64,000 nt of DNA, from the NCBI GenBank assembly GCA_951406725.2, contig OX597814.1, forward strand, positions 128,774,001 to 128,838,000. Reading direction: 5' to 3'. Both the position numbers and the translations under genes were made by a program. Below, in pieces: positions 3,321 to 38,354 of the stretch (position 1 is its first letter; the number at the start of each line of letters is the position of its first letter). The DNA is from Octopus vulgaris (lineage: Eukaryota). Under the pieces are notes generated by a model. The model ran no database searches, was not told the origin of the DNA, and was given only the letters and a program-made list of their open reading frames with translations.

Positions 3321-4015
3321 CAGTGAAATATAGGCAAACGGAAAACCAGTTTAAATTAGTTGGAAAAATTTTATACGTGTGTAAAAATAATTACGAAGAT
3401 ATTTTTGACCAGTAGTAGTTTACATGATTAAAATTTTGAAAAAAATGATAAAGAAATGAGTTTTTGTTTAAAATGGTAAAAATTTTCACATACCATAATG
3501 ACTTTTAAAAAATGGTAAGCTTCTGAAGTGAGTAACACATGAACTATATAGTATCTTATAATTGCTTAATCATTCGCTTAACTGAAATTTATTAGATTGT
3601 GAAACGTTGCAAAAAAATTACATCCTGAAAGAGCCGCGTTAGCAATTTAAAAACAAACGAAAATTGTTACATTGATTTAAATAACTCTTTAGTATTATAT
3701 ACTATAAAATATCAAAGTTTCGTCGCACGTCTATAACCAAGAAATATATAACATTTTACTGGGTCTCAAAATTGTGTGAATGAGGAAACTTTGTGACATT
3801 TGCCAGTAGTTGATATTATGAAGGAATAAACGAAATTGAATATAACTGTTTTATATGTTTTATTGTTTTTAAATGTTTACTGTGATTCTTTCGCAGCGTA
3901 ATATTTCAGTCTCAACTCAATCTCAGATCAAGTCACTGGACAAGCAAGTTCAACACCGAAATAGTAATTTGTTTAAACTGCATACCCATGTCTATCTTTC
4001 TTGTGTCCAAAATAT

Positions 4016-4597
4016 TTCTTTCTACCATAGGTACAAGGCCTGAAAATTTGAGGGAGAGGGCTAGGCGATAAAACTGATCCCAGTGCTCAACTGGTAGTTA
4101 TTCTATTGAGCCCGAAAGGATGAAAGGAAAAGTCAACCTCGAGGGATCTTAAACTCAGAACGTAAAGAACTGGAAGAAATACCTATTTCTTTATTACCCA
4201 CAAGGGGCTAAACACAGAAGGGACAAACAAGGACGGACAAACGGATTAAGTCGATTACATCGACCCCAGTGCGTAACTGGTACTTTTTTAATCAACCCCA
4301 AAAAGATGAAAGGCAAAGTCGACCTCGGCGGAATTTGAACTCAGAACGTAGCGGCAGACGAAAAACCGATTTCTTTACTACCCACAAGGGACTAAACACA
4401 GAGGGGACAAACAAGGACAGACAAACGGATTAAGTCGATTACATCGACCCCAGTGCGTAACTGGTACTTATTTGATCGACCCTGAAAGGATGAAAGGCAA
4501 AGTCGACCTCGGCGGAATTTGAACTCAGAACGTAGAGGCAGACGAAATACTGCTAAGCATTTCGCCCGGCGTGCTAACGTTTCTGCCAGCGATCACC
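4016..4597 (-). mobile_element. SINE family B trimer (two Tx1-tailed units plus one older-tailed unit)
   Basis: Units 4369-4597, 4185-4368 and 4016-4184; only the first carries the full head; the first two end in TAAAGAAAT. Confidence 0.9.
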
Positions 4598-4611
4598 TTG
4601 TTTCCCAATAT

Positions 4612-4791
4612 CGGTTTCAAGTTTTGGCTCAAGGCAAGAAGTTCGGGTGAGGGATTAAGTCGATTTCGTCAACCCTAGTTCTCATTCAACTGGTACTTAT
4701 TTTATGGACCCCGAAAGGACAAAAGGTAAAGTCGGCCTCGGCGGAATTTGAACTCATAACATAAAGACGGACGATTCTGCCAGGTCGCTGC
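4612..4791 (-). mobile_element. SINE family B
   Basis: Meta-like core; flanked by CTTGT(T/G)TCCCAATAT duplication. Confidence 0.85.
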
Positions 4792-5179
4792 CTTGTGTCC
4801 CAATATTGTTATCATTAATAACTTGTCATTCACAGACAAACTAACAACATTTCGCACGGCATAAGCTTCACTGTTCGCTCTTCATCATTCAGCCACCAAC
4901 GAATTAGATACTGCAGGTTTTATCTCGTTTGTTTTCACGGTTGATTACTTGGTTCAATGTCTGCTCTAATGCGATCAGTAATCTCCAAACCCCACAAAAT
5001 CTATTTTTTAGCTTTTATTTTTATGAAATTTTGCTTTGCTTTGTTAGCAAATTATTTGAATATTAATTCTTCAGCTTAGCTCTAAGCAGCATATCATATG
5101 TTTACTGGGCGAGCTATAAATGCTATTAAAACCGCAATCTGTTGAACGTAAAGCAAAATACGATAGAAATATATGAGTT

Positions 5180-5390
5180 TCAATTGTTGGTACAAGGCCA
5201 GCAATATCGGGGGAAAGGGTAAGTCAATTACATCGATTCCAGTGCTTAACTGGTACTTATTTCATCGACCCCGAAAGGATGAATGGCAAAGTAGATCTTA
5301 GTGGAATTTGAACCCAGAAAGCAAAGACAGTCGAAATGCCGCTAAACATTTTGCCAGGGGTGTTAATGATTCTGCCAGCTCCGCTATCTT
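5180..5390 (-). mobile_element. SINE family B
   Basis: Head plus Meta-like core. Confidence 0.8.
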
Positions 5391-7180
5391 ACAGCAGAAA
5401 TACATTCACACATGAAAAGGAACAGAATTTTTCTTTCTGATATTTGTGACTGTAAAAGTTATTATCGTTAAATATATCTATTCTTTAATTCTTTCAATGG
5501 TTCAGTCGTAGGACTACGGACATACTGGAATACCACCTTAATTTTCTTTCAATTTTGTTGCTGCTTTATGGCTGGAATTTGGTTTATAACTAAGTTTGTA
5601 GCAACTGATTTTCCCTGAGTGTATCTTTTAATAGTTGGCTGGTCCGAGATCATTGTTAGGAGCTTATTCAATATTTCATCAGAGGCCCCTTTCATATTTC
5701 TGATGCCAAGAATTTTGGAGAAATATACTTGATCGTATCGACCTAAGAACTTGACTAGTATTCTATGGTCATGGCTAGAACGTCTTTGATAGTAAGCCTG
5801 TTTTATTGTTTGATGATAGTTGACTTCAGTGTCGTAACTGGACTACTCTAAACACATCCCTGCTACGCTATGAGTTGACTTGGAGTTAAACAACAACAGC
5901 ATTTCAGACTTCCAGTCTATGCACTACAAGACACTATCTGTTCTGTCTTCTTGTACTGTCTTAGCTATGCACTTAATATTACACCATCTGTGTTTACTTT
6001 TCAAGAGAATAACAGACCCGAGTCAAGGAAAATTGACATCAATAGACTAAACCAATGTTTCTCATAGAATGGGCAAAATCCGATGCATGAAAGGGGCCGT
6101 GAGGATTGAAAATGGAGTAGACAAATTGTCATTCTTTTATTTTTTAAATTCTTTTACTCGTTGCAGTCACTGGACTGTGGCCATGCTGGGGCAACACATT
6201 GAAATGATTTAATTGGACAAATCGACTCAAGTAATTATTTTTTTGAAAAGTTTATTCTATTGGTCTCTTTTGCCGAATTGCTAGTTGCATGAACGTAAAC
6301 AAACCAATACCAGTTATCAAGTAGTGTGAGGACCAGCACACACACGCACACACACACACTCTCTCTCTCTCTCTCACACACGCCCACACACACACACACA
6401 CATTATCTTCGCAATTATAGTACATGCATTGCAATGTGATTTGATAGGGGTTATAGTTAGGCGCAGTACGTCTGAAATAGTAAAAAAGGGGTAACATAAA
6501 ACTGAATTCTGGATTTCAGCAGCCCGTTTTAGAGGGCATACAGTTTCGATCAACTATGTCATCTCTGTACACAATCATTATCATCATCACCATCATAATC
6601 ATCACCGTCGACATCAGCATCATCGTCATCATTATCGTTATCCTTCCTCTTCTCTTCACCATAGTCACATCAACATCGCCACCACTTCCGTCGCCACCAT
6701 CCTCGCCGAATTTAGAACATAAAAACGGACGAAATGCCGCTAAGCATATTGTGAGGCGTGCTAACAATTCTGCCAGATCCGCCGCCTTAATAATAACGAC
6801 AATAATTTCGGGTCTTACTCCGCAGTTATTTAACAATTTTGACAGAATCAACTGAACATCATGCTCACAAGGGATAATGTTGCTTAAGAGGTCAACCATA
6901 TCAGATAATGAATTTTCCCTTCAGTATTCAGTAACATCACGGGTTTTCCTAATCTCACTTTATCTGACTTAAAAAGAAAAGAGAAACGAAAGACAAGCGC
7001 AAAACAAATCGAAAGAAGATTTTTTCTTCAGTTGGAAACTACTTTTTTTTAAATTCGGAATGAAGAAGCAATTACTTGACATATTTTGATCTACTAAAAT
7101 GCTTTTTGTATTAAAAGTTTCGGTCCATTCTTTAAGAATTTCTGTAAAAAAATAATTACGTCTGTCACACTACAATTCTT

Positions 7181-7464
7181 ATTTCTTTATTGCCCACAAG
7201 AGGGGACAAACAAGGACAGACAAACGGATTAAGTCAATTACATCGACCCCAGTGTGTAACTGCTACTTAATTTATCGACCCCGAAAGGATGAAAGGTAAA
7301 GTCGACCTCGGCGGAATTTGAACTCAGAACATAACGGCAGACGAAATACCGATAAGCATTTAAAATATCTTACTCAAGAACACAATACAGCCTGGTCCAA
7401 GAATCGAACTCATTGCCTCATGATTGTATGCCCGACGCTCTAGCCACTGAGCAATGCGCTTTAC
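7181..7464 (-). mobile_element. Chimeric SINE: family C-type tRNA head fused to family B body with Tx1-type tail
   Basis: 16-bp perfect TSD GTCACACTACAATTCT at 7164-7179 and 7465-7480; head with A/B boxes at ~7362-7464; body and tail 7181-7361. Confidence 0.75.
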
Positions 7465-7732
7465 GTCACACTACAATTCTACTTTTAAAGATGATTTTAT
7501 TTATTTTAGTGTTTTCTACTTTACACAATGGCGGTGGATTGGCAGAATTGTAGAACGTCGGAGATCTTTTTTTTTCTGCTTCAATATGTCCTCAGCTCAA
7601 ATCCCACTGAAATCATCTTTGATCTTCATCCCTCCGAGATCGATTAAATGAACTACCAGTCAAGCACTGCGGTTAATTTCTTTGAGACCTTTTGCCGATT
7701 CAAAAAAAAAATCAATATTTTATACGACCTTT

Positions 7733-8146
7733 GGTGGCGAGCTGGCAGAAACGTTAGTACTCCGGGCGAAATGCGTAGCCGTATTTCGTCTGCCGTTACG
7801 TTCTGAGTTCAAATTCCGCCGAGGTCGACTTTGCCTTTCATCCTTTCGGAGTCGATTAAATAAGTACCAGTTACGCACTGGGGTCGATGTAATCGACTTA
7901 AACCGTTTGTCTGCCCTTGTTTGTCCACTCTATGTTTAGCCTCTTGTGGGTAGTAAAGAAACAAGCATTTCGTCTGCCGCTACGTTCTGAGTTCAAATTC
8001 CGCCGAGGTCGACTTTGCCTTTCATCTTTTTGGGGTTGATTAAATAAGTACCAGTTACGCACTGGGGTCGATGTAATCGACTTAATCCATTTGTCTGTCC
8101 TTGTTTCTCCCCTCTGTGTTTAGCCCCTTGTGGGTAGTAAAGAAAT
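7733..8146 (+). mobile_element. SINE family B dimer with Tx1-type tails
   Basis: Units 7733-7962 and 7963-8146, each ending TTTAGCC(C/T)CTTGTGGGTAGTAAAGAAA(C/T). Confidence 0.9.
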
Positions 8147-8179
8147 AGGTGGCGAGCTGGCAAAATCGTCAGCACGCCG

Positions 8180-9822
8180 TGTTTGATGCTTCGTGTTTTT
8201 TTCCGTCTGTATAAGTTGAATGGTTAAAGGCTATATTTGTTTTTGTTTAATTGTTTTGGATTTTTGCTGTTCGCAGCGGTGGTGTTTTTGAAAAATGGCA
8301 AGGAGGAACAGGTATTCTGACCTCAGTGAGTCGGACCTGTCGACTTCGGAGGATGACTGGCGAGAGCGGTCAACAGGCTAGATATGGCGTTAGAAGGAAA
8401 AATGAATTACGCAGGAGTAATGAAGGCAACAAGCAAAAAGGTTGACCGGCAAAAGGTTACCAGACGGCCAAAAATGGGTGAAGAAGGTAGGCGATGACGT
8501 GGAGTTGTCTCCGCCAAGGAAAACAATAAAAAATTTTGAAAGGAATACCATAACGTACAAGGTGTTTGCAACAGATAAAAGAAAAATGGAAACAGTTGGA
8601 ATAGAAACCGTGGAGGAGGCATTACGAACAACAGCAGAAAAAATAATATTCCTGACAAGAGGGAATAAGTTCGGTACTGTCGTTGTACAGTTCGAATCAG
8701 AGGCAGTCGCTAGGAGGATGGCAGCAAGGACTATCAAGACAGAAAAAGTAGACCTTCTGCCCTCGTATCCGGGAAGGAAGACGTCCAGAATCAGGGTGGA
8801 AGGAATCCCACCCGACATAGAAGCTGAATGCGTAGTGGCAGCCATCGTCATTGATAATGAGGATAAGGTGAACATACTAAAGGCCACAATTACGGATGAA
8901 GGCAACTGGAAAGGAGGATATTAGAGATGAGCGTCCAAGTGGAAACTGAAGTTCTGGAACGCTTAACAGAAGTAATCACGATGGGAGACATAAGTCTACG
9001 AGTATGGGTGGAGGGCAGAGCTCCTCGATGTTTTAAATGTGCCCTGAAAGGCCACATAAGAGCTAACTGCCCTCCACCAGCGAAGGAACCAAAGAAGGAG
9101 CCCGTGGAAGATATAGAAGGTACCCGGGATCCGCAAGAGGAACAGAGGGAGGCAGAGGAGGAAAAGAGGGAAGATCAAGCAGAATGGAAAACCAATGGTA
9201 AAAGGAAGAAGAGAAAAAGAAAGAAGGCAAGTTATAATGAACCTCAATCCACCCCAGCACCACCCACGCCCCTCTTCGTCCCACCCTTCCCCTGCAGACA
9301 CAAAACCTACCCACTCCCCACCAACAAGAAAAAAAAAAGCAGGCACACAGAACAACTTACAAAATTCCCCTCCCGTAATGCCCGTTATAGGTTTATTGGA
9401 CAAGGAAGACGAGGACCTGCTGGAAATATTGAGGGACTCGGGTGAAGTTGAATTGCTGGATAGTTGGGATGAGGAGGGTTGTATGGAGGTGTTTTTAACG
9501 GGGAAACAAGTGCAAGAACTTGAAAATGAACTGAACAATGTTTTTGCGTTAATAAGAAAGGATATAGCCCCGGACTGGAAAAAAACTAGAAAAACGGTAC
9601 GGGGTGAAAATATGGGATTATGTATTGTTCGGAAGACTTTAAGAAGAGGACATAGGAAAAGAGGACAGGTAAGCGATGTTATCTGATGGGGCAGGTAACA
9701 TCACTTTCATCTTTCATTTTCACCCTCTCATTTTTATCATACGTTTGTTTTTGTATTTTTATTGTCCCCAATGTGTTTTTTGTTTCTTATCTTCGTCAGC
9801 CCGTCCTGGGTAATAAAGAAAT
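8180..9822 (+). mobile_element. ORF1-only non-LTR retroelement (HAL1-like, L1/Tx1 group)
   Basis: ~1.65 kb; one frameshifted gag-like ORF, short T-rich 3' UTR ending GGGTAATAAAGAAAT, 18-bp TSD (8162-8179 and 9824-9841, 2 mismatches); no endonuclease or RT coding sequence. Confidence 0.8.
8295..9686 (+). pseudogene. L1/Tx1-type ORF1 (gag-like; putative RRM region plus CCHC zinc knuckle), frameshifted
   Basis: Pieces 8442-8924, 8927-9445 and 9195-9686 join by frameshifts; knuckle CFKCALKGHIRANC at 9029-9070; MNYAGV motif; ..RIRVEGIPPDI.. and ..LRVWVEGRAPRC.. resemble L1/Tx1 ORF1p. Confidence 0.75.
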
Positions 9823-11119
9823 TAGAATCGTTAGCACGCCGGGCAAAATGCCTAACGCTATTTCGTCCGTCTTTCTGCTACGAGTTCAAACTCTGTCGAG
9901 GTCGACTTAGCTTTTCATCCTTTTCGCGTTGCTAAAATAAGTACCAGTTGAATACAGGGATCGATATAATCGACTTACCTCTTCCCCTAGTACAAAAAAA
10001 TTCAAACCAATATTTTATACGGTCTTTTACCTAAGCGGGCCGTGTTCGATTCTCGGAATGGAAACGCTACAATTTTAGGCGCAGGAATGGCATGACATGG
10101 CTGTGATTAATCACTTGATTTCTGGTTTAGTTCCACTACACTGCACTTTGAGCGCGTACATTTTGCTCTAGCCCCGGGCTGATTAAGGCCTTGCCAGTGA
10201 ATTTCATTGACAGGAACTTTGGAAGCTCGTCGTGTGTGTGTGTGTGTGTGTTACGCGTGTGTGTCCCCGTTTCACCGCTTGACATCCTCCGTTGGGTTGT
10301 TTGCATCCCCGTAATCCAGCGGTTTAGCAAAAGTCATTGATAAAATAAGCACAAGATTTTTTTTTAAAATAAGCACTAGGGTTGATATATTATACATTAT
10401 TCTTTTATTCGTTTATACGTTCCAGCCCTAAAGCTGTGCCCATGCTGGAGCACCAAAATTTGAAAAAAAAAATGTTTTGTTTTTAGGCGGTAAGTTACGA
10501 TTTGATGGCAATTTAGTTGCTATTTCTAATGTGTAGGGCGTCTCTGAAGTGGCTCGATAATTGGCTCAAGTCTTTATTTCCACAACTGTGTCATAAAGAC
10601 GATGTTAACCTTGTTAGCTCACTCTTCTATGATTATTTAACCATCAACGTTTGGTTCTCTTTTATTATCCAGTTCATTTTAATAGACATTTCGTCGTCTG
10701 CGTGTTTGTCTGTCTGTCTATCTCACTGTCTCTACCCCTCTCTCCCTTTTCTCTCTCAAATTTCCCTCTCTCCAACACATTCTCACCGCCTTTTATTATT
10801 ATTATTATTATTATTTTGCTTTGTTCTTCGTCGGTAATAAAATCCGGTGTTTGTATGCTTATGTCAGTGTGAACATAAAATGGAAAGCCAAAAAAAAAAA
10901 AAAATCCGTTATTTTCAATCAAACGCAAAAGCGTGTTTGCGAATGCCGGGAGAAACGAGACTTCGGAAACTGAAGATAACTTTGAAAATTACCAGGCCGA
11001 TTCCACCACCACCACCACCATCACTATCACCATCAGCTAACACGAACTTTCACCCCTCCCCTACTATGTACAACTTGGGGGAGTTTGCAGTGCTCTAATT
11101 ATTCCGACGTTTACCACCA

Positions 11120-29303: not shown

Positions 29304-29557
29304 ATTAAAGTATGTAATATTTAAAGCAATACATTACATAACATTACGAAAGTACCGTAACTATAGTTTTATTATGGGGTCAGATTAGCTAGAGAAGTCT
29401 GTTTGGACTAAAATTAGCCTTCTGTAGTGAGTGTCAGGGATAAAATTAATGTATATGAGACCCATCTTCGCATATGAAGTCCGGGATAAGTTTCTGAGAC
29501 GTTTAATAATAATAATAATAATAATAATAATAGTAATAATAATAATAATAATAATAA

Positions 29558-30533
29558 ACCACCTAATAAACACAAAGAAGAAGAAGAAGATGAAGAAGAA
29601 ACAACAAAAGCTATAAAACAAATGAAATCCAAACTAAAAATAGAACAGCAACGAGCCATGATAAAACGATGGCAAGAAAAACCCCTTCATGGTAAATACT
29701 GCACTAAACTAAACGCAAAAGAAATAGACAAAGAAAAATCCCAGCAATGGTTGAGAAGCTCAGGACTCAAAGCAGAAACAGAGGGATTTTTAATTGCAGC
29801 ACAAGACCAAAGCCTCCCCACCAGAAATTACCAAAAACATGTAATGAAAAGAAATATTACAAGTAACTGCAGAATATGTGGAGATGGACAAGAAACAATA
29901 AATCATATTATCTCTAGCTGCCCAGTCCTGGCTAAGAAGGAATATATTCACAGACATGACAGAGTTGGAACCTACATACATTGGAAGCTATGCCAACATT
30001 ATGGAATAACAACAGAAAAAAGATGGTATAGGCACACACCAGAAAAGGTCACAGAAAACGAGAAAGCAACCATACTCTGGGATATGCCGATACACACAGA
30101 TAGAGAAATTAAGGCCAACAGACCAGATATAATTGTCAGAGATCATGAAGAAAAAAATGCTTTCTAATTGATGTATCAATACCGGCAGATGACAACGTGT
30201 CTCTAAAAGAAATGGAGAAACTCTCAAAATACAAAGACCTGGAAATAGAGATAACTAGAATGTGGAACCTGAAAACAGAAACAATTCCTATCATAGTAGG
30301 TGCATTAGGCATGATAAAAAAATATTCAGACAAATACATAACAAAAACACCAGGACTTACAAACACATATAACATACAGAAAATTGCACTACTAGGCACT
30401 GCACACATCCTATGCAGAACACTTTCCATACAATAACCATCAGAGCATCACAACAAATCACAGCACATACCCAAGGCACACAGAGCTGCGCTCGGTAGTG
30501 AAGTAAAAGCACGCTATAAAAATAAAACTACTG
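29558..30533 (+). mobile_element. R4/Dong-clade non-LTR retrotransposon, 5'-truncated, inserted in (AAT)n
   Basis: CCHC finger CRICGDGQETINHIISSC, RHD motif, restriction-like endonuclease RPDIIVRD..IDVSIP..K..KY, C-terminal KIALLGTAHIL; (AAT)n on both sides (29505-29556, 30534-30555). Confidence 0.9.
29622..30436 (+). pseudogene. Dong/R4 ORF C-terminal part (zinc finger plus RLE endonuclease), one frameshift
   Basis: ORFs 29622-30167 and 30197-30436 join through a slip in the A-run near 30151-30157. Confidence 0.85.
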
Positions 30534-30556
30534 AATAATAATAATAATAATAATAA

Positions 30557-31106
30557 ATGTCTTGATGCAGTACCAAGCAGTGGCTCTCGTGGCTTCTGAT
30601 CTTAACTGATTGGAAGTGTTATCATGTACATTGTTTTGTCTTGGTATAAAAGATGGGCTACAGCAAATATTCTGCTCAATACCACAGATTTGCTTGTCAG
30701 TTGTTTGACCTTAACCAGTTGAGCACTTCTTAGTGGCTGATATGTACATCTCTAATCTAAGCAGAAGTAGTTGGGGAGCATCATAGCCATGTGTTGAGAG
30801 GGATTCTTTGGGGTTTGAATAATTCACCTCTAGAAACATGGTTGTTTCGTTCAACATCCTTAAACAACCCTTATTCAGGGACCTTTTGAGCGGGATGGGT
30901 TACTCGACCAGAAGAAAATTCTAACTGGGCCCCACTTGCAAAGTCATGTGCTATTTATCTTCATATGAGATTCCTATGTCGCCTACATATGGTTGTGATG
31001 CATGTGCCTTGTGTACCCTTATCAGACGGGTAGTCATGATGGGTATACTGGGCTTCGTATATTTTACCCCAGTGTCACTTTGATGGCACGCACTGCTCGC
31101 TCACTC
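30557..31106. mobile_element. ~550-bp non-coding element bounded by (AAT)n on both sides
   Basis: Sharp boundaries at (AAT)n 30534-30555 and 31107-31120; no long ORF. Confidence 0.5.
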
Positions 31107-36846: not shown

Positions 36847-36959
36847 CATTCTTTCATATACCTATTGGCAAATACTTTCACAACGAATGCATTTGTACAT
36901 ATGCTAATTTAATATCTATACACGAATCAGTAGGGATTGAATAATTAATATTTGTAAAC

Positions 36960-37117
36960 GTTGTCTTTACGTTCTAAGTTCAAACTTTGCCGATCTCAAC
37001 TTTGTCTTCCATCCTTTCGGGGTCGATAAAATAAGTACCAGTTGAGTACTGGGGTCGACGTAAGCGATTTATCCCTTTCCCCGAACTTGCTGGCTTTGTG
37101 CCAAAATTTGAAACCAG
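36960..37117 (+). mobile_element. SINE family B, 5'-truncated
   Basis: Meta-like core; TSD TATTTGTAAAC at 36949-36959 and 37118-37128. Confidence 0.8.
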
Positions 37118-37641
37118 TATTTGTAAACATTCTGTTATAAATTACATTTTATATATCAATACGCCTATATGTTATTTGCCGACCTTTTAATATTCAACTT
37201 ACCATTACATAGCGTCTACATTTGATAGCAAAGTTAATATCTAAAAATCAAATGAAAAACTTTGATTTTATGAAATTTGCTGGTCTTGCGTCAAAATTTG
37301 AACCAAGACGATGGAGTGGACCATTGACAGGTTTTGAACTGTTGTCCGTTTGGAATGAGGATATGAAAAAAAGAGAATAGAAGAAATAATACAGATTGTA
37401 ATCGTATATTTGCATAATGCTACCTGCTTTCGGTAACATCACATATGCTAATTTAATATCACCTGTACACGAATCAGTAGAGATTGAATAATTAATATTT
37501 GTAAACGTGTTCTCTTTACGTTCTAAGTTCAAACCACGAAGGAAAAAAAAAGAGAATTCACGAGATCAGGATTTTTTGGTAGGGAGAAAAAGAAATAGAT
37601 TTAAACAAGGAAGCTTCAACTGAGAAAGCTTTTCTGAGTTC

Positions 37642-38354
37642 ACTTGGTGCAATGGGGAGCTGTGTTACCGAGGCGCCCTACCAGTTCGGGATAAGCTCAC
37701 TAGACACGGTTATCCTGGCTCATCGGCCTGTCCAAGATGCGGACGGGACGAGGAAACTGTCCTGCACGCTATTGTTCAGTGTCCGGGTGTGTCAGAAGTG
37801 AGGGCTTATGCAGAACACCTGTTGTCAGATGTGAGGAGAGTACAGCTATCGTCGGAGTCAATTTTAAAAACTGACCCACCGGATTTCCGTACGGAAGACG
37901 GTAAGAATTATTTTCTGGTGGTTGTAGCAATCGCGAAAGAGGTGATTTGGAAGTCGAGAGTGAAAAGACTAAAGACAGGTAGCTTCGTCTCCGGCCTCGC
38001 GTTGGTTAATGTCTTCACCTTTTACCTGAAAAGGAAAGTGGGGCTAGAGAGGAGATGCCTGTCAGCGAGAATGTACAAAGATAGATGGATACGTGTACCA
38101 CGAATGTTGGGTATGAAAGCCTCTACGCGAACACGCAATAAAGGTGACCAGAAGGTGTCGGTAGAGAAGCAGGGCTCGTGGGATCGGAGCCTGTTTTAAT
38201 ACCTCACTTCTGTTTTTATTGTTTTGTAATTGTCTTTTGTTTATCATTCGATTTTCATATTTGCTCATTTAATTTTATAACCATCCGTATGTGTCTGACC
38301 CCAATTAGGCTGTATTGTCCCCTCTGTATGTCCCCTTGTGAGAAATAAAGAAAT
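37642..38354 (+). mobile_element. Tx1/L1-type LINE, 5'-truncated ORF2 end plus 3' UTR
   Basis: ELCYRGALPVRDKLTRHG..ACPRCGRDEETVLHAIVQCP (zf-RVT CCHC) runs in frame into ORF 37789-38199 (AKEVIWKSR); ends AATAAAGAAAT; 15-bp TSD AGCTTTT(C/A)TGAGTTC at 37627-37641 and 38356-38370. Confidence 0.85.

Follow-up and report, generated by a model that had tools for sequence, protein, structure and literature searches.

In a 64,000-nucleotide window of Octopus vulgaris DNA (contig OX597814.1 of assembly GCA_951406725.2), two tandem arrays of one SINE family consist of young units nested in older copies of the same family; their units are ordered by age, the young units share their tail with LINEs, and two of the junctions recur in other sequencing runs. 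The arrays were probably built by nested, likely sequential insertions of young L1/Tx1-tailed units into the heads of older family members, through a partner endonuclease with a preference for head positions +50, +17 and sometimes +3. Existing copies likely serve the family as landing sites, and the young units stand at a few fixed head positions, probably owing to a cutting preference of the partner enzyme.

The SINE family and its two arrays

A blastn search with unit A1 (listed below) returned 20 pieces of the family within the 64-kb window. The family is short, non-coding, dispersed and flanked by TSDs, which were found at the old copy A0, around the composite of array B and at element C. 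Head positions are numbered with the window's majority head as reference, starting at its first A; this head contains an A-box-like match at +13 to +23; the B-box pattern used gave no match in this head, though a GTTCAAAT core is visible. ARAGORN predicted no tRNA genes, and Rfam gave no tRNA match in 4000-10100 and no U1 or U2 match at the units, so that a U1/U2-derived head, the criterion for SINEU, was not found. The Rfam matches were four overall and weak, one of them to Giardia U2 (E=2) at 6696-6822. We take the family to resemble the Octopus OK SINE and the MetaSINE superfamily, of which a 66-bp Meta domain is the hallmark.

Divergence was measured as mismatches to a leave-one-out majority over 118 shared columns. 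The young tail is carried by five copies, A1, A2, B1 (7733), B2 (7964) and C (7180-7464), which differ at 6, 5, 2, 3 and 8 of the 118 columns, respectively (1.7-6.8%), and the 11 aligned old-tailed copies are diverged by 12-29%. One copy (1348-1130, minus strand) combines a young-type head and body with an old-type tail and may stand for the parent subfamily of the LINE-tailed one. Scans with the tail motif gave five loci in metagenome contigs, none in viral contigs and three in prokaryotic genomes; since none of these eight matches the SINE body, the metagenome and prokaryotic matches are attributed to chance. The SINE body motif likewise gave nothing in viral contigs. One of the young-tailed copies lies outside both arrays:

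7180 to 7464, minus strand: element C, the head of another tRNA-like SINE, presumably CORE-like, joined to a 5′-truncated young unit with a GGGCAAT tail variant

Element C has a perfect 16-bp TSD (7480-7465 and 7179-7164; score 16, equalled by 1 of 400 random pairs), and its target DNA, outside the family, is similar to the +17 site.

The preliminary description had read positions 4016 to 4597 as a head-bearing unit, a headless unit and a diverged unit with a different tail, and this three-unit layout was recovered in array A (4000-4806):

4612 to 4794, minus strand: old copy A0, with an internal head deletion and its own TSD, immediately upstream of A1
4369 to 4599, minus strand: unit A1, head, young body and LINE-derived tail, ending TAAAGAAAT
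4185 to 4368, minus strand: unit A2, headless young unit, starting at 4368 with CGGTTTTTCGTC at head +49/+50 and ending TAAAGAAAT at 4185
4016 to about 4183-4184, minus strand: unit A3, old copy from head +50, starting AGGTATTTC, with another tail
4000 to 4015, minus strand: third copy of a flank repeat of about 15 bp (other copies 4611-4597 and 4806-4792), which may be the TSD of the old copy A3

The comparison of first and last units, suggested earlier as an age check, gave 6 and 5 mismatches in 118 columns to the young majority for A1 and A2 and 23 to the old majority for A3 (19.5%); the last unit is older, and it has another tail. We infer that A3 was the original target of the array. TRF reported a period of 184 with 2.5 copies over 4079-4547. 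The head of A1 contains 4 differences within the first 11 nt but a single one within the following 36 (post hoc Fisher test, p=0.008), and its letters are young-type at about +21 and +38. Its diverged first 11 or so nucleotides are likely the stub of the old target copy, and what follows is young-type; such a head would fit the fusion of an old stub with a young element somewhere around +12 to +20 and the loss of the remaining old head.

Copies of the flank repeat stand ahead of A0, between A0 and A1 and past A3. The repeat at 4000-4015 scores 10 against the copy at 4806, which was equalled by 18 of 4955 random pairs, and only 6 against the nearer copy at 4611, which was equalled by 1222 of 4955; as a candidate TSD of array A it is suggestive only. 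The TSD of A0 (score 13) was equalled by none of 400 random pairs and by 9 of 4955 in a second comparison. From 4806 to 4000 on the minus strand, A0 and the A3 copy are apparently two old SINEs placed head-to-tail at one site, with three flank repeats of about 15 bp. Internal head deletions between short head repeats were observed in two old copies (4794-4770 and 39672-39640, both minus strand), and the deletion in A0 takes out the stretch between the two preferred sites.

An independent recurrence of the same junction had been noted at 7963, and it is indeed present, with AAGCATTTCGTC at this position, although the preceding bases are TAAAGAAAC and not ...T. It belongs to array B (7713-10027):

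7713 to 7732, plus strand: left copy of the outer TSD (right copy 10008-10027, 18 of 20 identical), which encloses the entire second composite, 7733-10007
7733 to 7963, plus strand: unit B1, head, young body and LINE-derived tail, 2/118
7964 to about 8146-8147, plus strand: unit B2, young and without a head (from +50), with head position +3 after its tail, 3/118
8148 to 8179, plus strand: head piece +3 to +34, of which 8162-8179 is the left copy of the LINE's 18-bp TSD
8180 to 9823, plus strand: ORF1-only LINE derivative inserted at head +17, frameshifted, with an ATG at 8295 and without ORF2
9824 to 10007, plus strand: old copy B3 from head +17, with another tail, the original target, 20/118 from the old majority

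Array B is an old SINE under one outer TSD, split by two young units and an ORF1-only LINE. The outer 20-bp TSD was equalled by 0 of 400 and 5 of 4955 random window pairs. The 18-bp TSD flanking the LINE corresponds to head +17 to +34 (right copy 9824-9841, 16 of 18 identical) and was equalled by 1 of 400. The heads at 7733 and 8148 both have T at +5, which is absent from the window majority, and this matches the expectation for a duplicated target. The simplest history compatible with this layout would begin with an old SINE, into which the LINE inserted at +17, followed by B2 at +3 and finally B1 at +50 of B2. The head piece at 8148-8179 could alternatively be the LINE's own 5′ end, which would change the head that B2 entered, not the head entry itself. 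TRF reported a period of 184 here as well, with 2.0 copies over 7783-8145.

Tail donor, candidate partner LINEs and target sites

The window contains a second LINE related to the young tail:

37536 to 38354, plus strand: 5′-truncated L1/Tx1-group LINE with the ORF2 C-terminus (zf-RVT, E=3.6e-8) and a 3′ UTR, candidate partner lineage

The young SINE tail matches the last ~70 nt of this LINE (38250-38354) with a score of 59, the best of 2000 shuffles reaching 33, and matches the end of LINE 8180-9823 (9720-9822) more weakly, with a score of 42 against a best shuffle of 39. The 37536-38354 fragment shares 52% identity over 148 aa with the C-terminus of P0152, whose best solved match is human L1 ORF2p (E=1e-50, versus 4e-22 for R2) and whose relatives contain PF03372, PF00078 and PF13966 (endonuclease, RT and zinc domains). 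Based on zf-RVT, the likeness to P0152, the nearest structure of P0152 and the domains of its relatives, the tail donor can be placed indirectly in the L1/Tx1 group. The subfamily had been called Tx1-tailed, and the L1/Tx1-group origin of the tail holds at group level, by domains and similarity, while the name Tx1 itself is provisional: named Tx1 references were absent among the matches to the LINE and P0152, and the RT is missing from the window copy. Searching viral contigs for P0152 gave nothing.

No TSD was found for LINE 37536-38354, as 341 of 400 random pairs reach the score. Upstream of it, 36900-36990 and 37450-37535 (plus strand) form a local duplication of flank and the start of a 5′-truncated SINE, the second copy of which runs into the L1/Tx1 fragment; because this SINE piece belongs to the duplication (~36900-36990, by eye), it was not counted as a head insertion. 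LINE 8180-9823 contains a weak zinc knuckle (zf-CCHC, E=0.027, below the Pfam cut-off), a T-rich 3′ UTR and a related tail. Its ORF1 piece (8424-8921) matched no Pfam family and no homologue among 641 candidates, which comprised longer proteins only, and its look-alikes were exclusively unnamed eukaryotic proteins. Other copies of this LINE at ~85-90% identity were found in runs X1 and X4, one of them spanning 9606-9824 in a single contig and ending at the tail, and the element may represent a non-autonomous 'half-LINE' family targeting head +17. The 3′ part of another non-LTR element (29490-30560, plus strand; zf-RVT, E=1.9e-6) has (TAA)n repeats at both ends, as a run ahead of its start and as its own tail.

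Tails of the young-SINE type number seven in the window, three at head +50, one at +17, one at +3, one (element C) outside the family and one, at 38354, with an unclear target, which places five of seven, or two of four by independent locus, in family heads. Heads occupy ~0.75% of strand positions on a generous count (16 heads × 60 nt), and the binomial probabilities of 5e-10 for five of seven and 3e-4 for two of four loci are inflated, since this region was picked for its conspicuous arrays and a stretch of 6 kb contains three of the four loci. The preliminary description had proposed a preferred insertion site in pre-existing heads. The preference stands but is not absolute, given the tails at 7180 and 38354, and the single site does not stand, since +17 is a second common site and +3 was used once in the window; there are at least two preferred head sites, +50 and +17.

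The tail end given earlier is likely one A too early, because the base before the target is T or C in the left TSD copies versus A at four of seven junctions. With the tail end shifted accordingly, all seven targets begin with purine-G (9.4% of positions; post hoc), and the 6-nt motif purine-G-H-W-T-Y fits six of them, the exception being +3. The +17 site falls inside the A-box-like motif. A TSD starts directly after the tail in LINE 8180-9823 (18 bp) and in element C (16 bp), and the TSDs of the SINE-in-head cases are hidden by homology.

An endonuclease that cuts purine-G-H-W-T-Y anywhere might produce the same picture by the loose motif only, if heads were hit for being abundant, for carrying the motif twice and for lying in accessible chromatin. 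The six fitting targets, the insertion of element C at a +17 look-alike outside the family and the proximity of three loci agree with such an enzyme. Nevertheless, heads contain 16 of the 806 motif sites in the window but received four of the six motif insertions, and the +3 site does not fit the motif, so that this explanation seems improbable.

Junction recurrence, alternatives and mechanism

Four of 24 listed runs were compared with 7962-10100 at 82% likeness, namely three of contigs, from organisms A, B and E, and one of raw RNA reads, also from E; runs X15-X20, with small word shares, were not among them. The counts below are not exhaustive; contigs are not equivalent to insertion events, the RNA reads possibly derive from few loci, and run X1 is possibly the window's own sample. 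Among the 15 joints listed (there are 1791 more), five leave the tail at 8150 and re-enter at 7967-7985, just past +50. The joint from 8150 to 7967, tail to +50, was found among the joints listed in 65, 55 and 5 contigs of the three DNA runs and in 62 RNA reads with 41 starts. The joint from 8150 to 7981 was found among them in 51, 42 and 1 contigs and in none of the reads; 7981 is where the alignment of old-type copies starts, and this joint likely represents the tail entering old-type copies. Among the joints listed, those from 8082 and 8084 to 7981 occur in 9-16 contigs per DNA run, which leave the body where the old tail begins and re-enter after +50; headless units may thus occasionally stand downstream of old-tailed copies too.

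An A stands at position 9823 in 118, 112 and 103 contigs and in 1006 of 1028 reads, and a C at position 9811 in 76, 59 and 56 contigs and in 885 of 894 reads; the LINE's own 3′ UTR is hardly covered in the RNA run. These letters, which are counted per position and not over whole reads, imply that the tail variant of element C commonly joins head +17. A SINE body upstream of +17-joined tails is known only for contigs with the joint from 8084 to 9824 (at least 14, 10 and 11, among the joints listed). The +17 class is about equal across the three organisms, and the +50 class is scarce in contigs of E. The main +50 joint has a summed depth of 13,062 in X1 versus 35.8 million for the bin holding the tail; the two quantities are not comparable, and a claim of strict targeting is barred by so small a joint depth beside that of the tail bin.

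Such recurrence could also arise from composite masters, if a small number of tail-head junctions had a single origin each and later multiplied as dimers, in which case the recurrence would reflect dimer amplification. A2 and B2 are identical over 77 nt (columns 6-82) with 6 differences in 102 columns beyond (Fisher p=0.04), and they share three derived C>T changes, which independent insertion alone leaves unexplained; moreover, the RNA run shows very little variation at the +17 junction, and contig counts cannot separate independent insertions from master copies. Nevertheless, five consecutive T, a likely Pol III terminator, result from the shared changes, and the A1|A2 and B1|B2 junctions differ at five of six bases. 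The terminal units are 17-20% diverged versus 2-5% for the young ones, and the outer TSD belongs to the old copy. As a guess, the 77-nt tract might reflect gene conversion between the two arrays, which are inverted and lie 3.6 kb apart; it may also stem from a sub-lineage common to A2 and B2 or from a dimeric source. An equivalent rival was raised by Kojima for SINEU-3 (PMC4494074), and for the present arrays we consider it unlikely.

Template jumping appears less likely still. A reverse transcriptase stalling at +50 of one SINE RNA and jumping to the 3′ end of another would lay down a full and a headless unit in one event, with an identical tail-to-headless joint for young-young pairs, and element C is a two-SINE chimera under one TSD, so template switching likely occurs here. 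It cannot, however, join a young unit to a 19.5% diverged and differently tailed copy, and it leaves the old head stub and the outer TSD unexplained; for the junctions of young with old units, a template jump in a single event was rejected.

Local tandem duplication or unequal crossover, which the preliminary description had argued against, is hardly credible: the period is fixed at 184, and the head-truncated SINE arrays of the clam Scapharca broughtonii have been discussed as recombination products (PMC11481361), but duplication is contradicted at both loci, because distances within arrays are no smaller than those between them (over 184 ungapped columns, 13 for A1-A2 and 16 for B1-B2 versus 13, 11, 17 and 10), unlike SINE-derived satellites, whose units are more alike within arrays, and because the junctions are not mutual copies (A1|A2 does not copy A2|A3, and B1|B2 has no local junction to copy), while the tail has no homology to head +49 and every young unit has a full tail, unlike the tail-truncated first and middle units of the clam arrays.

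Insertion into pre-existing heads, as initially proposed, is supported by the outer TSD around 7733-10007, the inner TSD of the LINE, the age contrast and the comparison of within- and between-array distances. An empty allele was not seen. For nested insertion the following course can be envisaged. The partner endonuclease would cut preferred head sites, target-primed reverse transcription would begin at the tail, and the part of the target left downstream would become a headless unit. The new cDNA would end in a head homologous to the upstream head stub, so that the 5′ side would be left without a visible seam, either by annealing or by later deletion between the heads. The seamless homologous 5′ junction of the preliminary description holds as a structure, and annealing at the time of insertion cannot be distinguished in it from a later deletion between two heads. 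Every insertion would restore a full head that could be hit again, and arrays would accordingly grow at the 5′ end with the oldest unit last. The headless units are without the A-box-like motif, and the newest unit retains the whole head; the headless units are likely silent, to judge from their motifs.

Tentatively, and with somewhat more doubt than belief, the family might be regarded as a self-homing SINE, which would have captured an L1/Tx1 tail and whose partner endonucleases would recognise the family's own Pol III promoter, so that inserts would behead their relatives, take the place of the promoter by way of a homology-closed 5′ junction and recreate the target. As parts of the same tentative reading, one site would cut the A box and one would lie between the boxes, and tail variants would go to different sites. 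Self-homing, if true, would amount to positive feedback: the genome's most abundant repeat would serve as a safe harbour for its own successors and their LINEs.

If nested insertion is true, the promoter heads of the mobilised family's own SINEs would join the known targets of L1/Tx1-group endonucleases, tandem SINE arrays could be formed by a non-recombinational route, and homology-closed 5′ junctions would have a natural case beyond R2. Nested stacks give a time order of subfamilies, and repeat libraries are liable to mis-split such loci into dimers or satellites.

Comparison with known systems

In the literature searched, which did not extend to Repbase, Dfam, Kojima and Fujiwara 2004 or Ohshima and Okada 1994, no report was found of a SINE targeted to the head of its own family. 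The 2026 annotation of Octopus vulgaris describes 13 recently active L1-Tx1 families, and the words 'target' and 'nested' do not occur in the portion of its text examined (PMC13282606).

The tandem SINE arrays of Scapharca broughtonii (PMC11481361) and the SINE-derived satellites of squamates (PMC10702118), the latter discussed as duplications, resemble the present arrays in their head-to-tail order, head-truncated units and one outer TSD. The clam arrays differ in their tail-truncated first and middle units, whereas the octopus arrays have complete tails, units of unequal ages and a LINE at the same target. In R2, seamless 5′ junctions form when the cDNA end anneals to the target upstream (PMC11331408), but R2 uses a restriction-like endonuclease on rDNA, whereas the relatives of the LINE considered here contain the apurinic-type domain PF03372, and annealing is something that we infer only.

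Endonuclease-set target preference is found among LINEs of the L1/Tx1 group, including Tx1L in Tx1D of Xenopus, Keno in U2 genes and Kibi/Koshi in microsatellites, as summarised in PMC4494074. They differ from the present case in that, among these as summarised there, no target is a SINE family mobilised by the same LINE.

The closest precedent appears to be the crocodilian SINEU and Tx1-Mar LINEs, a similar system with a foreign target, both of which favour two regions of a Mariner element (Kojima 2015, PMC4494074). The strength of this targeting is variable, with 90%, 23% and 13% of copies on target, and sequential insertions gave tandems around the TSD (PMC4494074). An element is regarded as target-specific in the same study if more than 20% of the family's flanks are one target type; the values to set against this rule are five of seven tails and two of four loci, which come from this window only and are not genome-wide. 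Both systems combine a SINE and a partner LINE that favour sites within another repeat, two preferred regions, variable strength and sequential tandems. They differ in that the crocodilian target is a Mariner DNA transposon and the SINEU heads are snRNA-derived, whereas in the octopus the target is a tRNA-like head from the family to which the SINE itself belongs; target and insert are therefore homologous, and the insert restores the target.
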